Positions 20,746 to 56,609 of a DNA stretch of 64,000 nt are shown piece after piece. The stretch is from Octopus vulgaris. Lineage: Eukaryota. The translations under genes and the position numbers were made by a program. The notes beneath the pieces are model-generated. The model did no database searches. It saw only the letters and a program-made list of their open reading frames with translations, and was not told where the DNA came from. How positions within the stretch are numbered: position 1 is the stretch's first letter; the number at the start of each line of letters is the position of its first letter. The DNA is taken from positions 20,522,001 through 20,586,000 of the forward strand of contig OX597830.1 of assembly GCA_951406725.2 (NCBI GenBank). The letters run 5' to 3'.

Positions 20746-20827
20746 CGCACACATGTATATATATATATATACATATATATATAAATATAAATGAATAAAT
20801 ATATATATATGTTTGTGTGTGTGTATA

Positions 20828-20881
<54 letters not shown>

Positions 20882-20882
<1 letters not shown>

Positions 20883-21089
20883 CTCTTACTCTTTTACTTG
20901 TTTCAGTCATTTGACTGCGGCCATGCTGGAGCGCCGCCTTTAGTCGACCAAATCGACCCCGGGACTTATTGTTTGTAAGCCCAGTACTTATTCTATCGGT
21001 CTCTATTGCCGAACCGCTAAGTGACGAGGACGTAAACACACCAGCATCGGTTGTCAAGCAATACTAGAGGGACAAACACAGACACACAA

Positions 21090-21150
<61 letters not shown>

Positions 21151-21316
21151 TACGACAGGCTTCTTTCAGTTTCCGTCTACCAAATCCACTCACAAAGCGT
21201 TGGTCGGCCCGGGGCTATAGCAGAAGACACTTACCCAAGATGCCACGCAGTGGGACTGAACCCGGAACCATGTGCTTGGTTAGCAAGCTACTTACCACAC
21301 AGCCACTCCTGCGCCT
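20882..21316 (-). mobile_element. SINE family A, full length
   Basis: Reverse-complement homology to the other copies, including the tail. Confidence 0.9.
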
Positions 21317-21793
21317 GTATAAATTAATATACACATAGAACATCCAAGATTTTCGCCAGTGCGGAGTCTGAATTATGACGAAATTCTGAGTCTGGCGATC
21401 CACCGACGTTCTGAGCGAATCCCAGTGTTTTTGACACCAGAAGTTCTTTTTGAGAAGTTTGTTTGAAGTGGAATATTACTGCTAGTGGCGTTCTACTTTT
21501 GCATGTGCATCATAAATGATTTCCAGTCACAATAAGAATAATATCAGGAACACATCTACCAAAGATCCTGTAATTGCGTACGCAATATTTTTATCATATA
21601 ATATAACATCGAGAGACAAACGAAAGGTTTTAAATTTAGTGACGTTTGTTTCGTAGGGAAATTTATTTAATGTACTCTTAATACAATATCGTGAAATATA
21701 TTACACATAATACCTGATCTGTGTAATTCCCTCTAGCCAATTAGCGGTGTACTACAAGTTGGTATGCCTTGATTCTTTATGAAACTTACCAAA

Positions 21794-27700: not shown

Positions 27701-28030
27701 ATGTGTTTGTGTGTATTGTGTGTATGTATTGTGTGTATGTGTGTGTTGTATGTGAGAGTGTGAGCATACTTTTATGCGTGAGTGTTGTGTGCATTATGAG
27801 TGTGTTTCTGTGAATTTGTGTGTATGTATGTGTTAATCTTTGAGTGTGTTTAGTAATGTTCGTATATGCTGATTATGTACAATGTATGCTGGTTTTAGTG
27901 TGTAGGGAGTTATGAGATGCATGATGCATATGTATAAGTGTGTGTATACACACACACACACACACACACATATATACACTCACATATCATATATATATAT
28001 ACTAAACATACATATACACAAATATATATA

Positions 28031-28247
28031 TACTTTTACTCTTTTACTTGTTTCAGTCATTTTACTGTGGTCATACTGGAGCACCGACTTTAGTCGAGCA
28101 CATCGACCCCAGGACTTATTCTTTGTAAGCCTAGTACTTATTCTATCGGTCTCTTTTGCCGAACCGCTATATTACAGGAACGTAAACACACCAGCATCGG
28201 TTGTCAAGCGATGTTGGAGGGACAAACACAGACACACAAACACATAC

Positions 28248-28281
<34 letters not shown>

Positions 28282-28444
28282 GACGGGCTTCTTTCAGTTT
28301 CCGTCTACCAAATCCACTCACAAGGCTTTGGTCGGCCCAAGGCTTTAGTAGAAGACACTTGCCCAAAGTGCCATGCAGTGGGACTAAACCCGGAACCATG
28401 TGGTTGGTAAGCAAGCTACTTACCACACAGCCACTCCTGCGCCT
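28031..28444 (-). mobile_element. SINE family A, full length
   Basis: Homologous to 20882-21316. Confidence 0.9.
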
Positions 28445-28473
28445 ATAAATATATATATGTGTGTTTTTATACA

Positions 28474-30745: not shown

Positions 30746-31130
30746 TCTCTCTCTATATAAACGGCAGTTTGTCTGTGTGTGTTTCTGTGTGTCTGTTTGG
30801 TTGTACCCTCACCCTGACCATGGCTTTCAACCGATTCTGATGAAACTTGACACACACATAGCCCAATGTCATAATTCAAAACTAACGCAGCGAAAATTTT
30901 GAAATGTTCCCCCAGTTCTGAAAAAAATCGATAAATTCGACATGGGGTCGAGAATCAGAAACACAAACCACAGACTGTCTAGGGGACGCAACTCGACCTT
31001 TTTAACTCTCAAAAAAAAATTTACCATCATTTTTTTCCCATTTTTTTGCTATTTTTTGGCTATAACTCTCTAAAAATGCTTTATAGTTATTTCCCTTACA
31101 AACCTGAGCAACGCCGGGCGATACTGCTAG
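30746..31130 (+). mobile_element. Non-autonomous Helitron (385 bp) of the same family as 41491-47631
   Basis: A|TC start. First ~250 bp are nearly identical to the autonomous 5' end. 3' end cttacaaacctgagcaacgccgggcgatactgCTAG|T resembles the autonomous cttacatacccgggcaacgccgggctatgctgCTAG|T. Confidence 0.93.
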
Positions 31131-32352: not shown

Positions 32353-32530
32353 CCACCCTGCTGGTTTTGGTGGCGTTGGAACTGAAATTCATTGACACAG
32401 ACTTCGCTGGAGTGACCATCTGATAAGATAACCTGATTAACGCCTGACAATGCAACACTTATATGGTCAGATGAAAGGAACAAAGTGGTCGCTATGTAAA
32501 ACAAAACTGTGCTTCAAAGATTCAATAAGT

Positions 32531-32696
32531 AGGCGTAGGAGTAGCTGTGTGGTAAGTAGCTTGCTTACCAACCACATGGTTCCGGGTTCAGTCCCACTGC
32601 GAGATACCTTGAGCAAGTGTCTTCTACTATAGCCCCGGGCCGACCAAAGCCTTGTGAGTGGATTTGATAGACGGAAACTGAAAGAAGCTCGTCGTA

Positions 32697-32773
<77 letters not shown>

Positions 32774-33008
32774 GCATGTGTGTGTGTGTGTGTGTCTATG
32801 TTTGTGTATCTGTGTTTGTCTCTCCCGCCATCGCTTGCCAACAGATGCCGCTGTGTTTACATCCCCGTATCTTAGCGGTTCGGCAAAAGAGACCGAGAGA
32901 ATAAGTACTAGGCTTACAAAGAGTGAGTCCTGGGGTCGATTTGTTCAAATAAAGGCGGTGCTCCTGCATGGCCGCAGTCAAATGACTGAAACAAGTTAAA
33001 GAATAAAT
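32531..33008 (+). mobile_element. SINE family A, full length
   Basis: Runs from aggcgtaggagtagctgtgtggtaag to cagtcaaatgactgaaac. Confidence 0.9.
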
Positions 33009-33524
33009 GAATGCATATGTACTAACGAGTGCTTGGACGACTTAAAAAGAAAACAAAACTCTTAACTTTATCTGTTAAACTTGCTTAGAGATACTTAATG
33101 TTGAAGTATGGTGTCAGGAAGTGAAAGAGGTCAACGATAGGTCACGTATATGTTTTGGCGTGTGTATGTGTGTGTATGTGTCTACGTATGTGTGTTTGAG
33201 TTTATGCATGTGTCATGACGTATATTTATGCATATAAATGCGCACGTGCGCCTTTTATGCGTGTGCGTGCGTGTGTTGATTTCTATCAGCAAAAAGGTTG
33301 ATAGTGACTTTGAAGTTTCGGCTTACCTGTCGTCGTCAGCAACCGATGACGGCTAATAAGTCTGAACTTCGAAGTCAAGGTCAAACATTTTCTTGTGAGA
33401 AACTAATGAGTACAAAATTCTAATGGAAAATATTGAACGCTCCTTCAATTTGATGTGTAACTGTTTTTGCATTTAACTTTACGTAAACGCTAGTATCAAT
33501 ATATTTACACATACACACACACGC

Positions 33525-38260: not shown

Positions 38261-38403
38261 GAAGTATATTGTTCCAACAAACTATAAATAATACATATAC
38301 GAAAATACAAAAAGTTCGTGATAAAGAGAAATAAATGAAACATAGTCGCATTTTTAATAAAACATATATGTGTGTATGTGTATGTGTGAATGTATGTATA
38401 AAT

Positions 38404-38466
<63 letters not shown>

Positions 38467-38482
38467 TAATATATATATATGG

Positions 38483-38705
38483 TCTTTTCTCTTTCACTCT
38501 TTTGCTTGTTTCAGTTATTTGACTGCGGCCATGCTAGTCGACAAATTGAATCTAGGACTTATTCTTTGTAAGCCTAGTACTTATTCAATCGCTTTCTTTT
38601 GCCGAACCGCTAACTTACGGGAACGTAAACACACCAGTATCCGTTATCAAGCGATTGTTGAGGGGAGACACAAACAAATCCACACAAACACACACACGCA
38701 CACGT

Positions 38706-38767
<62 letters not shown>

Positions 38768-38909
38768 GACGGCTTTCTTTCAGTTTCCGTCTACCAAATC
38801 CACTCACAAGGCTTTGGTCGACCCAAAGCTATAAAAGACACTTGCCCAAGGTATCATGCAGTGGAAATGAACCCGAAATCATGTGGTCGGTAAGTAAGCT
38901 ACTTACCGC

Positions 38910-38910
<1 letters not shown>
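38483..38910 (-). mobile_element. SINE family A, more diverged
   Basis: Homologous, with small deletions. Confidence 0.85.
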
Positions 38911-40781: not shown

Positions 40782-41490
40782 GTGCGCACACCCCGGAGTA
40801 CATATATACGCTGTTGACACGTCAGCCGATTAGACAGTCGCCCTCACTTCAATTCTTGCATTCTTGCTTCAGTAAATACCATCTGCTGGAATTCAGCCGA
40901 ATGGCAATAAAGATCACACAATTCCAAACGATCGGCTAAGATATCATTACCCTTCCCAAAGTTGGTGCTTTGATTAAAAACTATACTCAATACCTGCAAC
41001 AGAGCCATCGTATCTGCACCGGGATGGTGGGACTCGAGCGCCAATTATTGTATTATTTGCTATCATCTAACTAGTTATCTTTGATCGGTTTCAGAGTTTC
41101 AGAGTTTCAGAGGTATTTCCTATTAAACCGGTTCACCTAGAAATTAAATGGACGGTAATCTGTTTTTGTCTGTCTGTTAGTCTCTTTTATTTTTGTTATT
41201 TTTTTTTATCTTTCGTTCTGTTCATTTGTGATACCTTTATCTTTCTCTATCTCACTTTGTCTCTCTTTCTCTGCTTCTGTCTCTCTTTTTCTCTTTCTGT
41301 CTCTCTGTCTCTATCTGTCTGTCTGTATGTCTCTCTCTTTCTCTTACACTCTCCCGCACTCTCTCTCACTCTCTCTCGCTCTCTCTCGCACATACGCATA
41401 CACGCACACAGATACATAGACACGCACACAGACACACACAAACTTGTGTGTACGTGTTTATATATATATACACATACATACATACATACA

Positions 41491-44400
41491 TCTCTATATA
41501 TATAAACGGCAGTTTGTCTGTGCGTGCTTCTGTGTGTCTGTTTTCTCGTACCCTCACCCTGACCACGGCTTTCAACCGATTCTGATGAAACTTGACACAC
41601 ACATAGCCCAGTGTCATAATTCAAAACTAACGCAGCGAAAATTTTGAAAAGTTCCCCCAGTTCTGAAAAAAATTGATAAATTCGACATGGGGTCGAGAAT
41701 CATAAACATGAACCACAGACTGTCTAGGGGACGCAACTCGAGAATCTAAGCTTTTTTTATGCAACGCATTATCTATGGTAGTTTTCACAACTTGCAATCG
41801 ATTTTCACCAAACTCATGGTGAAGCTTAATGTTACCCTAAGAAACTCAATTCTGACGTTAGTTTTCCATGCAATACCTTACCATCAGAAACAATCGATAA
41901 AATCATGTCATTTTGGGAAATCGCGTTCAAATTCAAGATGACATATTTTCGACAATATCTTTCACAAATTGGCAGGAATCTTTTTTTTTTCACAACGAAC
42001 ATCATGTCTGCTCCAAGGAGGCTATATAGCCCTTTTTATTCCAATAGGATACATTATTGGAAAAAATCGGTTAATTTAATCATATGTGGCACACATAGCA
42101 AACAAATTTGTGTATTAAACACAAACCAGACTGTCTAGGGGACGCAACTTGACCTTTTTAGCTATCGATAATTCGATCCAACCAATTCCTACCAGGAAGA
42201 AATTACATTCGAGACTTTACCCCCAACACCACCACTTCTGCTAATAGCTGCTGCAGCCGCAAGTTATTCGAATGCTTTTTTGTTTAAACTTTCTTTATAA
42301 CTACCACCCCAAACGTTTTACCTTCAATTTTTGACGTACCCTAACGGTCCTCGGACGCTACTTGCAAACTCTTGGTTTATTATAAACCACTTTTGTCGTG
42401 TGCATCAAAAACTTTTCCTTTCGTTTGTTCAGTTTGATCACTTTTGACTTTTTCGTTGTTGTCACTCACATTGCTGCCAGCTTTTTGGCCGTTTTTGTAC
42501 TTTTTATACATTTTCGGATACTTACCCCACGAGCTCCTTTTTATTACACCTTTACCAAACACATTGCTATCCACCAAAATACTTACCCCACGTGTTCCTT
42601 TTTATTACACCTTTGCCAAACACATTGCTATCCACCAAAATGCCACCCAAGAAGAGAAGGATCCTCCTCAGCCCTCGGACGGCCAAGGCATCGGCTGCTA
42701 GGGCTAGAAGGGCACGCGAGACCCACGAGGAAACCGCCTTGCGCCTCTCGCAAACAGCTTCCCGTTATGCCGCTGCTCAGGCATCTGAAACTACTAGCGA
42801 CCGTTCTACCCGACTTGCAAGGGTCGCAGCGTACAGATCTTCCCTCCACTCGAGGTTGACGAAAGAGCAACAGTCCAGCCAAAACATGCGGGCTTCTTAC
42901 TGTGCTTCCATCCGCAGAGCTCGCGAGAACCCCGAACAAAGGGCCATTCGGAATGCGGCTAACGCCACTAGCACCGCCAGGACACGATCTGTCGAAACCT
43001 CACAGCAGAGGAGAACTCGCCAAGATGCTGACGCCGCAAACAAAGCCATGGCCAAAGCTGCCGAAACACCTCAACAGAGGAGAGCTCGCCAAGCTGCTAA
43101 CGCCGCAAACACAGCCAGGGCTCGATCTGCCGAAACTCCACACCAACGGACTATTCGGACATCCAGACATGCCATTAACACTGCTTCTGCTAGGGCTTCA
43201 AAGGGTGCTGAGGCGAGAGCTGAAAGGCTTTCAAGGGATGCCACTGCTACCGCTGTCGCACGTGCATCTGAATCTGCTGAGGCACGGTGCACTCGACTTG
43301 AGAGTATCAACAAACGTCGGGATATCATTCGTGGTGTACGTACCCCTGCCCCCGCTTTCTGGTTGTCACTAGCATTCAACTACGACGCCACAATTAACTT
43401 CTCCTTGCGTGACGACATCAAGATAGGGTCAATGACAATTGTATGCCAGTTTTGCAAAGCCAAGAAATGGCCCGGAGAGCCACCTGGTTTGTGCTGCTCT
43501 GGTGGCAAAGTGGACCTGCCACCCCTATGGGAACCACCTCAACCACTGAAGGATCTCGCGGCGGGTTTAACCCCCGATTCGTCACAATTCCTTGAAATAA
43601 TTCGAAAGTACAACTGCTCATTCCAAATGACCTCTTTCGGGGCCAAAATTCCTCCCAGAGAAGGCTGGATGCCTACTTTCAAAGTGCAGGGACAGGTCTA
43701 CCATCTTATTGGGTCACTTCTGCCAGACGAGATTCAGCAGTCTTCTTTCCTCCAAATATACTTCATTGCCGACTACAACCACCAGGTTGATGCACGCCTT
43801 GGAATAATACCGGGTACAAGCTATGTTCCCCGCAAAGACATTCTTCTCCGTCTCCAAACCATGCTTCATGATATCAACAGCTACGTCTGCAGCTTCAGAT
43901 ATGCCTTGGACAGTGCTCCATCTCCAAACTTCACCGTTGTCATTGATGCTGATAAACGACCCCACGGGGAGCACGAACGCCGTTTCAACGCACCTGCGTG
44001 CAACGAAATTGCCGCAGTCATACACGGAGAGCAACACAACAGCCGTGACATAATCATCTCCTCCCGTGGTAACAACCTACACAGGATCAGCGAGACTCAC
44101 AGATCTTATGACGCGCTTCAGTATCCATTGCTTTTCCCTTATGGGGAAGACGGCTACCACTTCGGAATTCCTTTACGGCAGCCCTCCAATCAAACTACTG
44201 CGGCATCAAAGACGGTTTCCTGCAGGGCATTCTACTCATACCGGTTCATGGTCAGGGAGGGTGAGTTCAACTTAATGCCCCGTTGTCGTCAGCTATTCAA
44301 CCAGTTCGCCGTCGACATGGCCGCAAAAATGGAATCGGAAAGGCTGCTATACATTAAACTTAATCAGACCAAACTTCGCTCCGACTCCTACATTCATCTC

Positions 44401-47400
44401 CGTGACGGTTTGCAACAAGAAAATGACCCTCGCAACATCGGCAAGCCATGCATTCTACCCTCCACCTTCACGGGAGGACCGCGATATATGCGTGAAAGGA
44501 CCCAAGACGCCTTGACCTACGTGCGCATTTACGGCCGGCCGGACCTCTTTATCACCTACACGTGCAATCCCAGCTGCGACGAAATCACTCGCGAACTCCT
44601 CCCGGGTCAATCTCACACCCATCGACACGACATCGTTGCTAGGGTTTTCCGTCTGAATTTGGGCAAAATGAAGGATTTGATAGTTAAGGGTCAGATTTTC
44701 GGGCATGTCAGGTGCCACATGTTTTCGGTCGAGTGGCAAAAGAGGGGCTTGCCACATGCTCACATCTTAATTTGGCTCACTCATAAAATCGAGACTAATG
44801 ACATTGACAAATTCATTTCCGCCGAGATTCCTGACCCCGATGAGGACCCCGGACTCTACGAAATTGTCCGCACTACCATGGTACACGGGCCCTGTGGACC
44901 AAATTACGCCAACACACCATGCTACAAAAACGGATTAGCCTGCTCAAAGGGATTCCCTAAACGGTTCACTTTGGAGACTCAAACAGGCGGCGATGGGTAT
45001 CCGCTGTACAAACGAAGGAGTCCAGCCAATGGAGGCCGCACGATTACGGTTGGGCGACATCAAGTGGACAACAGCTACATTGTCCCCTACTGTCCTCTCC
45101 TGTCGAAGATATTCAAAGCCCACGTCAACGTTGAGTTCTGCAGCTCCATCAGGTCAATACAATATGTCTGCAAATATATCAACGAAGGCAGCGATGCTGC
45201 CATGTTCAGCATCCATAGGACCACCAGTCGCGACGAAGTGTCCAACTACTTGACTGGCCGGTACCTCAGCAGCAACGAAGCATTTTGGCGCATTTACGGC
45301 TTCCCGCTCCATCAGAGACACCCGACTGTGGTGCAGCTTGCTGTACACTTGGAAAATGGACAGCGGATTTACTTCACAGAGCAAAGTGCTGTGCAGATAG
45401 CCACCAGCCCTAAAGACACAACGTTGACTGGTTTCTTCAAATTATGCCAACGTGATGACTTCGCTCGAACGCTTTTGTACCCACAGGTCCCATCGTACTT
45501 CGTGTAGTCTAAAAACACCTGGGTTCGACGGAAATCCGGCAAAAACGTCGAAAGCTTCCCAGGCGTCAAGTTTGACTCCTGCCTGGGTCGATTTACAACA
45601 TCCCGCCAAACCAGCAAGAATGCTTCTACCTCCGTCTCCTTCTACATGAGGTCACTGGTCCAACAGGTTTCGCCAATATACGTACCGTCAATGGGGTTCT
45701 GTGCGACACATTCAGGGAAGCATGTATGAGACTTGGCCTTCTAGAGGATGACTCCCAGTGGGACGCCACGATGGCAGAGGGTGCTTTACTGCAAACGCAT
45801 TCGGCCCTACGACATCTTTTCGCAATCCTTCTTCAAAAATGTCAGCTTAGTGATCCACTAAGTCTCTGGATGAAATACAGGGATGACATGTCGCACGACT
45901 TCTTACGTACGGCTCAGCAACACTGCCCTTCCGCCGAGATCACGTTCACCAACTTCATTTACAATTTTGCGCTCATTCAACTCGAAGACGCTGTCATCGA
46001 TATGGGTGGGTCTGCTTTAACAGAGTACGGCCTTCCACCACCCACACGTGAACACGCCAATGTTATGTCTGTTGAATTGTTACGCGAAACTTCCTACTGC
46101 ATTGAGGAACTGCACCAGTACGTCCAAGATAATGAACCACGGCTGCTTCCAGACCAGCGCATAGCCTACAACACCATCGTAGACTCTGTCAGACAGCAAC
46201 GTGGGGGGATTTTCTTCCTTGATGCACCCGGCGGCACTGGCAAAACCTTCGTCACTAAACTAATTCTGGCAGAGGTCAGACGCAACACGGACATTGCCCT
46301 GGCTGTAGCTTCCTCTGGTATTGCGGCCACGTTGCTTCCGGGTAGCAGAACCGCCCACTCTGCCTTCAGACTCCCGCTCGATCTGGCAAAGTCCGAGTCA
46401 CCTATCTGCAACATCGCCAAGAACTCAGAACAGGCCGACATTCTGCGCAGATGCAAACTCATCGTATGGGACGAGTGCACTATGGCACACAAAGGCGCCC
46501 TTGAGGCACTGGACAGGTCCCTGCAAGACATCAGAGACTCTACGGCCCCCATGGGAGGATTAACTTTACTTCTTTCAGGAGACTTCAGGCAGACTCTACC
46601 TGTTATTCCAAAAGGAACCCGTGCCGATGCCGTGCGCGCGTGCCTTAAGTCGTCAGCTCTTTGGGCACATGTGCGGCCCTTGCACCTCCAAACTAACATG
46701 CGCACGCAGTTAATTGGTGACAGCGGATCCGCTGCATTCTCCAGGGACCTGTTATCGCTCGGTGAAAATAGGATGCTGTCTGATGCGGATGGCTATGTTC
46801 AATTGGACTCACTTTGCACCATTGTCGACACCCCTGCTAGCCTCCGGGACACTGTCTTCCACGACCTACAAAACAATTTACGCGACCTAAAATGGCTGGC
46901 AGGCAGAGCTATTCTCGCACCCAAAAATACAACCGTCAACTCCATCAATATCCAGCTACTTGAAGCTATTCCTGGTGATGTCCACGTCTACAAATCTATA
47001 GATAGGACAGCAGACCCCGCCCAGCTTGCCGATTATCCTGTTGAATTCCTGAATTCACTTGAACCGCCAGGCCTGCCACCACACATCCTGAAGTTAAAAG
47101 TCGGTGCGCCCATTATGCTCATCAGGAATTTGGTTCCACCTAAACAGTGCAACGGCACACGTTTGGTTGTGAAACATTTGGCACCACATTTAATAACGGC
47201 CACAATACTTACCGGTTGTGGGAAGGGAGAGGACGTCTTCATTCCACGGATGCACCTTCAACCGTCGGGCGCTGACCTACCAATCCACTTCAGGCGTTCT
47301 CAGTTTCCTGTTAAACTCTGCTTCGCAATGTCCATCAATAAATCCCAAGGCCAAACGCTACAAGTCGCTGGGTTACATTTGGGCGAACAGTGCTTCGCCC

Positions 47401-47631
47401 ACGGTCAACTCTACGTGGGCTGTTCACGCGTTGGGAGGCGCAATGATGTTTTCATGTTTTCGCCCAAACGGACAGCTAGGAACATCGTATATACAGAAGT
47501 ATTCCAGTGAAGACAAGACATTGCAACGTCCACATGCACCTTCGTTCCCTGGAGGAAAGGACTACATTGGGATTAGTTGTTGCCTACTAGGGGCTCTTAC
47601 ATACCCGGGCAACGCCGGGCTATGCTGCTAG
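41491..47631 (+). mobile_element. Autonomous-type Helitron (rolling-circle transposon), full length, inserted at A|T inside a (CATA)n array
   Basis: 5' TC at 41491 preceded by A. 3' CTAG at 47628-47631 followed by T. Subterminal hairpin CCCGG-gcaacg-CCGGG at 47604-47619. No TSD; flanks read catacataca|...|tacatacat. Encodes RepHel. Confidence 0.95.
42640..47510 (+). pseudogene. Helitron RepHel (HUH Rep endonuclease + PIF1-family SF1 helicase), about 1623 aa when repaired; disrupted by TAG at 45505-45507 and a 1-nt deletion near 45592
   Basis: ATG at 42640 gives MPPKKRR (NLS-like). Zn-finger-like CQFC...CC. Rep motifs PDLFITYTCNP, VEWQKRGLPHAHIL (HUH) and YVCKY. Helicase motifs DAPGGTGKT, IVWDEC, GDFRQTLPV, FAMSINKSQGQTL and HGQLYVGCSRV. 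The gap between the two track ORFs reads (W)SKNTWVRRK...LGR, then after the shift YNIPPNQQECFYLRLLLHEVTGP...FREAC, a typical Helitron linker. Confidence 0.95.
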
Positions 47632-47720
47632 TACATACATATACTTACAAATGAGTGTACTTTTATATGTCTCTCTCCATCTATAAATAGAGGGGGAGAA
47701 AGCAAGAAAGAAAGAAAGAG

Positions 47721-48377: not shown

Positions 48378-48472
48378 CCGTAAATCCTCGAGTATAGTCC
48401 GCCCTTGAGTATAATACGCAGGGTATTTTTAGGGGGCTCTACTGCTGAAAAACCTAAACCTTGTGTATAATA
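48378..48472 (+). mobile_element. Single end of a Tc2/pogo-like element abutting the mariner
   Basis: TA|CCGTAAATCCTCGAGTATAG terminus with three subterminal gagtata(g/a)t repeats. Confidence 0.5.
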
Positions 48473-49457
48473 CAGGGCAGGGCTATATGGTGGATGTGGC
48501 ACCACTTCCCAGCCAAGCTCCAATCATTTTCACGAGTTAGCAAAGATGTGTGTAGTCTAGTGCTGTCATGGTGGAACACGATTCCTTTACGATTTGCCAA
48601 TTCTGGCCGTTTTCCCTTGATTGATTCCTCCAGTTTCATTAGTTGTTGACAGTAAACATCTGAATTGATCGTTTGGTTACTTGGAAGCACCTCAAAATAC
48701 GCAATACCTTTGTAATCACACCAAATTGACAACATGACCTTTTTTTATGCAATTCAGCTTTCGATATGGTTTGTGCTGGTTCATTACGCTTGGACCATGA
48801 TTGTTCTCGATTGATGTTATTGTAGACAATCCATTTTTCATTACCAGTGATTATTCGTTTCAAAACAAGGTTGATTTCATTGCTTTAGGGATGCATATCG
48901 CAAATATTGATTCGTTGTGTTAAGGGACTCTCTTTCAATTTATGAAGAACCCAAATATCGAGCTTCTTAATGAGTCCAAGACATTTTAAGTGATTTTCAA
49001 TTGTTGTGTGTGATACATTTAACCTCTGTTCAATCTCTCGCACAGTTATATGGCAATCAGATTCAATTATGGCTTTGATTCGGTCATCAGCAACTTCAGT
49101 AGGTCGAACAGAACGTTCTGGAGTGAAAAATCTCCAGAACGGAATTAAAAAATCCTTTCTGACATGTGCATTCTGTTTAGCAATCAAAACAATAAACTTC
49201 ACATATCTCTATCTTGCCTTTACGGAAATAAAAAAGCAAAATATGGCGAAAATGTTCGTTTTTGCACTCTATGTTAAAATTGACATGGAACTAACAGCTG
49301 TAAACAAAATTATGCGCAATTTGCTTCTAAAGTAAGCTAAAAGTAACGGCTATCAAATCTCAAAAGGAAAACAATTCATAACATTGACAAAAGTCATTCA
49401 AAACAATCCTAAGTATTTATTTGCGAAAAACCAAATTACTTTCTTGCCAAACCAGTA
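48473..49457 (-). mobile_element. Mariner (D,D34D; Hsmar1/cecropia-like) transposon relic, 3'-truncated
   Basis: Frameshifted segments KKLDIWVLHKL, ITGNEKWIVYNN, VFHHDSTRLH and WEVVPHPPYSPAL. TIR-like TA-ctggtttggcaagaaagtaatttggttttt ends at 49457. Confidence 0.88.
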
Positions 49458-56205: not shown

Positions 56206-56235
56206 ACGGATTGTTGTTGTTGTGGTTATTATTAT

Positions 56236-56607
56236 ACTCTTTTACCTGTTTCAGTCATTTTACTGTGGCCATGCTGGAGCACCGCCTTTAGTCGAGCAAA
56301 TCGACCCCAGGACTTATTCTGTGTAAGCCTAGTACTTATTCTATCGGTGTATTTTGCCGAACCGCTGAGTTACGGGGACGTAAACACACAGCATCGGTTG
56401 TCAAGCGATGTTGGGAGGACAAACACAGACATACAAACATATACACAAACATACACATGCACACACAAACATACACACAAACACACACACACACATATAT
56501 ATATCCATATATACGACGGGCTTCTTTTCAGTTTCCGTCTACCAAATCCACTCACAAGGCTTTGGTCGGCCCGAGGCTATAGCAGAATACACTTTCCCGA
56601 GGTACCA
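56236..56607 (-). mobile_element. SINE family A, head truncated
   Basis: Homologous to 28031-28444. Confidence 0.85.
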
Positions 56608-56609
56608 TG

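Follow-up and report, generated by a model that had tools for sequence, protein, structure and literature searches.

We found that a Helitron1 element of Octopus vulgaris encodes, in frame with its transposase, nine 23-residue STPR units near the N-terminus, and that the same element carries a tract of 4-bp period just inside its left end. We propose, with confidence close to but short of even, that the STPR array grips this tract on the element's own left end and loads the transposase there. The window, the whole stretch of 64,000 nucleotides that was analysed, contains the element at 41491 (TC) to 47631 (CTAG), inserted between A and T, together with a non-autonomous sibling. Their features are as follows.

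41472-41490, +: left host flank, (ACAT)n of ~4.75 units, its last letter the A of the A/T target, as read from the sequence
41491-41505, +: Helitron 5' terminus, TC and then a TATATA-AA box, with 252 bp in common (94%) with the sibling at 30746
41512-41543, +: subterminal (GTNT)n-like tract of ~8 tetramers, a candidate STPR site, from lag-4 windows and the sibling
42518-42639, +: 61-bp tandem duplication (95%), immediately 5' of the ATG
42640-42660, +: MPPKKRR start, a putative basic NLS-like motif common in relatives
42709-43338, +: nine STPR units, 42709-43329 in the register of the initial annotation and 42718-43338 in the STPR register
43372-43497, +: AFxY and zinc-finger-like CxxC..CC motifs belonging to the Helitron N-terminal domain, from alignments
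44230-45507, +: Rep/HUH nuclease (Helitron_like_N, aa 531-711), from Pfam and the Helraiser alignment
44755-44763, +: HAH, within the Rep/HUH nuclease
45163-45177, +: YxxKY, within the Rep/HUH nuclease
45505-45507, +: premature TAG closing the Rep frame
45508-45725, +: broken linker with a one-base frameshift near 45591
45726-47510, +: PIF1 helicase, including Walker A (46230-46247) and a 2B domain (PF05970, E 1.4e-62; PF21530)
47604-47631, +: 3' palindrome (47604-47619) and CTAG (47628-47631), then T, with the same ends in the sibling
47632-47644, +: right host flank, (TACA)2 and then degenerate, as read from the sequence
30746-31130, +: non-autonomous sibling of 385 bp (TC, tract, hairpin, CTAG), an A/T insertion in non-repeat DNA

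The initial annotation had described nine contiguous 23-aa units after MPPKKRR, and exactly this arrangement was recovered: nine adjoining units in one frame at 42709-43329, within an ORF of 955 aa (42640-45507), spaced by exactly 23 aa without indels across all nine units and with the N-terminal words as it had listed them. In the STPR register, where E is position 1, the array corresponds to aa 27-233 (42718-43338). Identity at lag 23 was 0.33, compared to 0.26 at lag 46 and 0.27 at lag 69, and 0/2000 shuffles reached 0.33 at any lag, the shuffle best-lag maximum being 0.227. Unit 3 is degenerate, with 9–17% identity to the other units and neither E1 nor R9. The contention that the repeats are not a product of recent slippage stood for most unit pairs, which are diverged (DNA identity 22–80%); it stood less well for units 5 and 6, the most alike at 80% and by their sequence a younger duplication, and for relatives, which swiftly gain and lose units. 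Five variants within the array were observed in X6 contigs, each amino-acid-changing, two of which may be mis-mapped since they are unit-5 letters at unit 6.

The reading of the array as an STPR domain, also put forward in the initial annotation, was supported by several results. First, the Pfam STPRs profile (PF21107) matched the array at 60.4 bits against a cut-off of 27 (E 2.3e-16). Second, a PDB search with the N-terminus as a single sequence returned FMBP-1 (5D23) as its only match (E 7.8e-4), and a profile of 20 Helitron N-termini matched the same structure at E 6.8e-11; 15 of the 20 N-termini in that alignment matched STPRs at E <=0.01. Lastly, AlphaFold with the 20-sequence alignment (mean pLDDT 88.8) predicted a zig-zag of single helices, each unit a two-residue linker and a 21-residue helix, with helix breaks at E1-T2 of the units except unit 3. 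Units 6-8 of this model, which are predicted to be FMBP-1-like single helices, superposed on DNA-bound FMBP-1 5D23 with an rmsd of 0.9 Å over 64/64 residues, by far the lowest rmsd among the 50 matches listed, yet with a Z of 5.5 that ranks 26th, among generic helices; the model may also echo 5D23 from training data. AlphaFold from the single sequence was poor (pTM 0.23), and Foldseek returned no match for the single-sequence or the alignment-based array model.

The array shares with Bombyx mori FMBP-1 a strict 23-aa period, E1 (7/9 units), T/S2 (7/9), R6 (7/9) and R9 (8/9), a predicted linker and helix, and a small residue at position 14 in 8/9 units. It differs in having nine units where FMBP-1 has four, and in being joined to a transposase where FMBP-1 is a transcription factor. 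STPR counts of 3–7 have been reported across 178 proteins, and Helitrons are not mentioned in the excerpt of that report considered here (PMC4856987). In FMBP-1 (PDB 5D23, 5D2Q, 5D2S), one helix spans 4 bp, positions 13 and 17 face bases, and recognition of DNA is mostly indirect, by shape readout (PMC4856987). The base-contact set of FMBP-1 (M13, S14, Y16, A17, R20, L21) is mostly lost in the Helitron array, in which M13 occurs in 0/9 units, Y16, A17 and R20 in 1/9 each and L21 in 0/9, while position 21 is R or K in 7/9. By analogy, the geometry of FMBP-1 should carry over to the Helitron array; its (ATAC)n preference need not, and transfer of that preference to the array was rejected because the contact residues differ.

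Downstream of the array, the RepHel set is complete (zinc finger, HUH, two tyrosines, PIF1) and split by a stop and a frameshift. The copy is thus broken, by the TAG at 45505-45507 and the frameshift near 45591; the extra base there is present in most of the X6 contig depth (77242/102582), and X6 contigs span the whole element up to, but not into, its flanks. The four cysteines of the zinc-finger-like motif are invariant (alignment A2), and the motif aligns to Helraiser 7LCC. Like Helraiser (PDB 7LCC), to which it aligns from aa 248 (E 7e-135), the protein has a zinc-finger-like motif, an HUH/Y2 Rep and a PIF1 helicase, and the element resembles Helraiser in TC and CTAG ends, 3' hairpin and A/T insertion. 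Unlike Helraiser, the copy described here is broken, and the first 109 aa of Helraiser gave no STPR match, either by alignment to the array or with the 20-sequence profile. STPR units may still be present there despite the profile miss, and the array may not be universal. The fold energy of the 3' palindrome is unremarkable taken alone (z -0.95). A/T flanks surround both copies, and within the (ACAT)n flank a short duplication would be indistinguishable. Neither the 5' motif nor the protein had a match in viral collections.

Other repeats were observed in the window. A 37-bp internal duplication (84%) with CTAG lies at 41716-41752 and 42127-42163, and the sibling at 30746-31130 joins the contexts of both sites. 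X6 contigs carry many internal deletions, which run from the 41800-42110 region as far as the element's 3' end. At 48400-49250 on the minus strand, a decayed transposase remnant with stops and frameshifts retains the words WVLHKL and ITGNEKW, and we take it to be mariner-like. Six copies, of 430–550 bp and 76–86% alike, belong to a SINE-like repeat whose head resembles a tRNA and which contains an internal (TA)n(TG)n tract. Together with the window's microsatellite load, this repeat is reminiscent of an octopus genome.

871-1297, 20825-21331, 27970-28457, 32530-33018, 38364-38910 and 56227-56609: SINE-like copies

Relatives of the octopus protein were collected with a search of aa 1-407, which returned 4789 representatives at E <=0.001, 150 of them listed; 153 proteins were analysed. 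The zinc-finger motif was found in 135 of the 153; under an approximate rule, 45 of the 135 carry at least three units (range 0–10), with a query that favours array-bearers. Pfam, run on 80 of the 153, detected STPRs in 16, nine of them over the cut-off; three of the nine (P0001, P0018, P0054) have Helitron_like_N in the same chain, and one named relative is from Ancylostoma caninum (P0001). Scans of metagenomes and genomes gave the best 80 of 211 metagenome loci and 16 genome loci, 12 of the latter (L081-L088, L092-L094, L096) contained in a bacterial bin, G001, whose Helitron- and microsatellite-rich contigs are most likely eukaryotic DNA. L089 and L090 likewise come from prokaryotic genome bins with Helitron- and microsatellite-rich contigs, which are most probably eukaryotic contamination.

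Comparison of these arrays revealed drift in unit number alongside uniformity within arrays. Four copies of a G001 family, family A, that is ~98.5% identical have 11, 8, 8 and 9 units, and the whole range across relatives is 0–11. Positions 13, 16 and 17 differ among the units of the 41491-47631 copy and between families; within most arrays, units are near-identical at base-facing positions. In families that are ~50% identical, units 1 and 9 each match the unit at the corresponding position. Over 84 Helitron units, the most constant residues were R6 (65%), R14 (71%) and R16 (69%), and the constancy of E1, R9 and R21 is partly imposed by the selection rule.

Several N-terminal variants were noted among the relatives. 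An OTU domain lies upstream of the Helitron1 N-terminus in P0063 (Pfam) and, by eye, similarly in L009:733 onward; OTU domains with Helitron1 are likewise recorded by HELIANO (PMC11417382). A Helitron-like protein at L089:6139 onward has, by eye, a different ~20-aa repeat in place of STPR. STPR arrays are also present in G001 at L178:583 onward, with a long unrelated N-terminal region, and in L182 (minus strand). A wheat Helitron has been described with a long, partly disordered N-terminus, in passages that make no mention of STPR (PMC13286980).

The left-end tract at 41512-41543, ~8 GTNT tetramers lying 21–53 bp inside TC, is the most 4-periodic stretch of the element (lag-4 0.59, mean 0.25 over 6105 windows), and the sibling keeps a 4-bp-periodic tract at 30767-30798. 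The layout TC-TATATAAA-tract recurs in unrelated families, and the units in related families are GTCT, GTTT, GTGT or GTAT. The distance of the tract from TC is fixed, and the period of 4 is kept where the letters change, as in L006, which has other letters and a lag-4 value of 0.62 compared to 0.24 at lag 2. We picked 16 family ends by hand and ranked the subterminal 36 nt of each against 200 downstream windows: the tract was in the top 5% in 9/13 families with at least three units and 0/3 with two or fewer (post hoc Mann-Whitney p 0.005). Of the array-poor families, two out of three form a single clade, and the ends of L032 and L062 are uncertain. No clear tract accompanies the arrays of L032 (~10 units) and L005, and the subterminal windows of L003, L028 and L045 were unremarkable by lag-4. 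In family A, 8, 8, 9 and 11 units go with 6, 6, 8 and 9 tetramers, a match that is possibly due to chance because tracts of non-autonomous copies vary from ~2 to 9 units. Across 19 loci, duplicates included, unit number was not significantly related to tract length (rho 0.31, p 0.2). The earlier suggestion that the array could recognise element ends is supported indirectly by the 4-bp-periodic subterminal tract.

Similar tracts have been described elsewhere. Lepidopteran Hel-2 has (CTGT)n or (GTTT)n near its 5' end (PMC4344730), and DINE-1 has microsatellites (PMC4067079); both share with the present element a variable tract of tetranucleotides a short way in from the left end. Unlike the element described here, whose tract accompanies a predicted 4-bp-per-helix reader, these elements are non-autonomous, and their tracts are presented without an assigned function in the cited sections (PMC4344730, PMC4067079). 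Counting against a link between array and tract, microsatellites are also a feature of DINE-1/Helentron elements (PMC4067079), although STPRs are reported almost only from HLE1 (PMC11417382). The tract's reverse strand (ANAC) was considered as an FMBP-1-like site and is not supported by the affinities of FMBP-1, for which (atac)3 is the best 3-unit ligand (135 nM) and the tract-type tetramers (agac)3, (acac)3 and (aaac)3 have Kd values of 8377, 3879 and 3073 nM, 23- to 62-fold weaker (PMC4856987). Since FMBP-1 is weak on such tetramers, binding of the left end by the array would need a changed specificity, and residues linked to specificity (Y16, M13, L21) are indeed lost in the array.

In the mechanism we favour, the array would wrap double-stranded DNA in the major groove with ~4 bp per helix, like FMBP-1, and a transposase monomer would load on the double-stranded left end; the HUH domain would then nick at TC, beside the easily melted TATATA box. 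Helraiser requires its N-terminal 489 aa for ssDNA binding and cleavage and transposes from dsDNA donors (PMC4778049, PMC5876387). The uniform units within arrays are as expected if the array reads a repeat, and with near-identical units reading a near-identical repeat, unit number could drift while function is kept. The same affinity could, as a side effect, pull insertions to the left ends of other copies and to AT-rich repeats. A further-reaching form of this proposal, which we advance only tentatively, is that the array is the end-recognition module of animal Helitron1, co-evolving with the left-end tetranucleotide tract, with the residues that each family has at positions 13/14/16/17 setting the tetramer.

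An alternative, which we judge unlikely, is that the array reads the target and directs insertions towards AT-rich microsatellites, (TA)n or (ATAC)n for example. The 41491-47631 copy interrupts ~7 ACAT units, a reconstructed (ACAT)7 site; its (CATA)n setting, pointed out in the initial annotation, is real but short: the left flank (41472-41490) holds ~4.75 units and the right flank (from 47632) holds 2. The (TACA)2/(TACA)2 context is rare, at 0.66% of the window's AT sites, and (atac)n is the preferred 3-unit ligand of FMBP-1; yet the residues with which FMBP-1 reads ATAC are mostly absent from the array, some microsatellite begins at 27.5% of the window's AT sites, and only one of the family's two copies in the window lies in a microsatellite, the sibling at 30746 being in non-repeat DNA. 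We also characterized 3' flanks in G001 for two STPR-Helitron families, taking 30/34 and 30/51 of the 3'-end matches; with three off the end pattern and one duplicate dropped, 56 ends remained (L116-L175). Family A ends in CTTG, not CTAG. Sixteen of the 56 ends, including a cross-family junction (L126), abut the 5' end of another Helitron, in keeping with a pull towards left ends. Among the 40 non-tandem flanks, all from STPR-bearing families and still including duplicate-looking pairs (L119/L141, L164/L165, L155/L156), 11 start with (TA)n, compared to 1.8% of 8447 nearby AT sites (p ~1e-10), or 6/40 compared to 1.6% under a stricter rule; on the other side, 0/40 start with (ATAC)n and 29/40 are non-repeat. 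Where a (TA)n flank opens with TC(TA)n, as some do, it may represent another copy's left end that has expanded. A lepidopteran Helitron-like element is reported, in the title of one paper, to disrupt (GAAA)n, but Helraiser, without an STPR match, also favours AT-rich 3' flanks (PMC4778049). Support for steering into microsatellites is partial, with an enrichment at (TA)n in related families but no (ATAC)n flank among the 40 and a sibling outside any repeat. Left-end grip and target steering are compatible, since affinity for the left end would also favour head-to-tail stacking.

We would also not expect a second alternative to hold, namely that the array serves as a basic anchor on DNA with low specificity, reading backbone and shape and perhaps also acting as an NLS, and that the tract is a hitch-hiking slippage product. 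Consistent with it, arginines and capping residues are the most constant over the 84 units, shape is what FMBP-1 chiefly reads (PMC4856987), copy number varies between 0 and 11, arrays without tracts exist, and one paper title terms (GTCY)n tracts 'hitchhiking'. Against it, the tract stays at a fixed distance from TC with a period of 4 despite changed letters (L006), and the match of units 1 and 9 to their counterparts across ~50% identical families suggests position-specific constraint. Very improbable is a TALE-like code in which every different unit would specify its own 4-bp word within one unique site: the units of this copy do differ at positions 13, 16 and 17, of which 13 and 17 face bases in FMBP-1, and these positions vary between families, but most arrays are uniform there with variation spread over the unit, unit number shifts by 3 within a ~98.5% identical family and FMBP-1 recognition is mainly indirect (PMC4856987), so that the variable-residue code envisaged in the initial annotation was not upheld.

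The pairing of STPRs with Helitron1 is already in print: HELIANO names STPRs as one of 20 additional domains that are stably carried, with STPRs nearly confined to HLE1, and groups them with domains 'encoded in different ORFs', without a transposition role (PMC11417382). In contrast to the elements treated in that section, the array here shares its reading frame with the zinc finger and Rep, and the same holds for P0001, P0018 and P0054; the section describes neither the in-frame fusion nor copy-number drift, and does not discuss a link to the left-end tract (PMC11417382). A literature search on the role of the array found none, judged mostly by titles and abstract openings and with most subscription journals outside its scope.

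Two questions are, to our knowledge, open: how a Helitron transposase locates, on double-stranded DNA, the left end of its element, and for what reason a tetranucleotide microsatellite lies at that end in many animal Helitrons. An in-frame STPR array, with a solved relative that reads 4 bp per helix, connects the two. If the link between array and tract fails, what is left is a widespread, already listed architecture on a dead copy, with one correction that remains regardless, the STPR domain being in frame with RepHel. If the array is instead an end-recognition module co-evolving with the tract, the two would lengthen in step, and the module would account for the head-to-tail stacking, the (TA)n bias and the (CTGT)n/(GTCY)n tracts termed 'hitchhiking'. 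In that case nature would have supplied, in the Helitron1 arrays, a library of DNA-binding helices that can be retargeted and are mounted on an HUH transposase.
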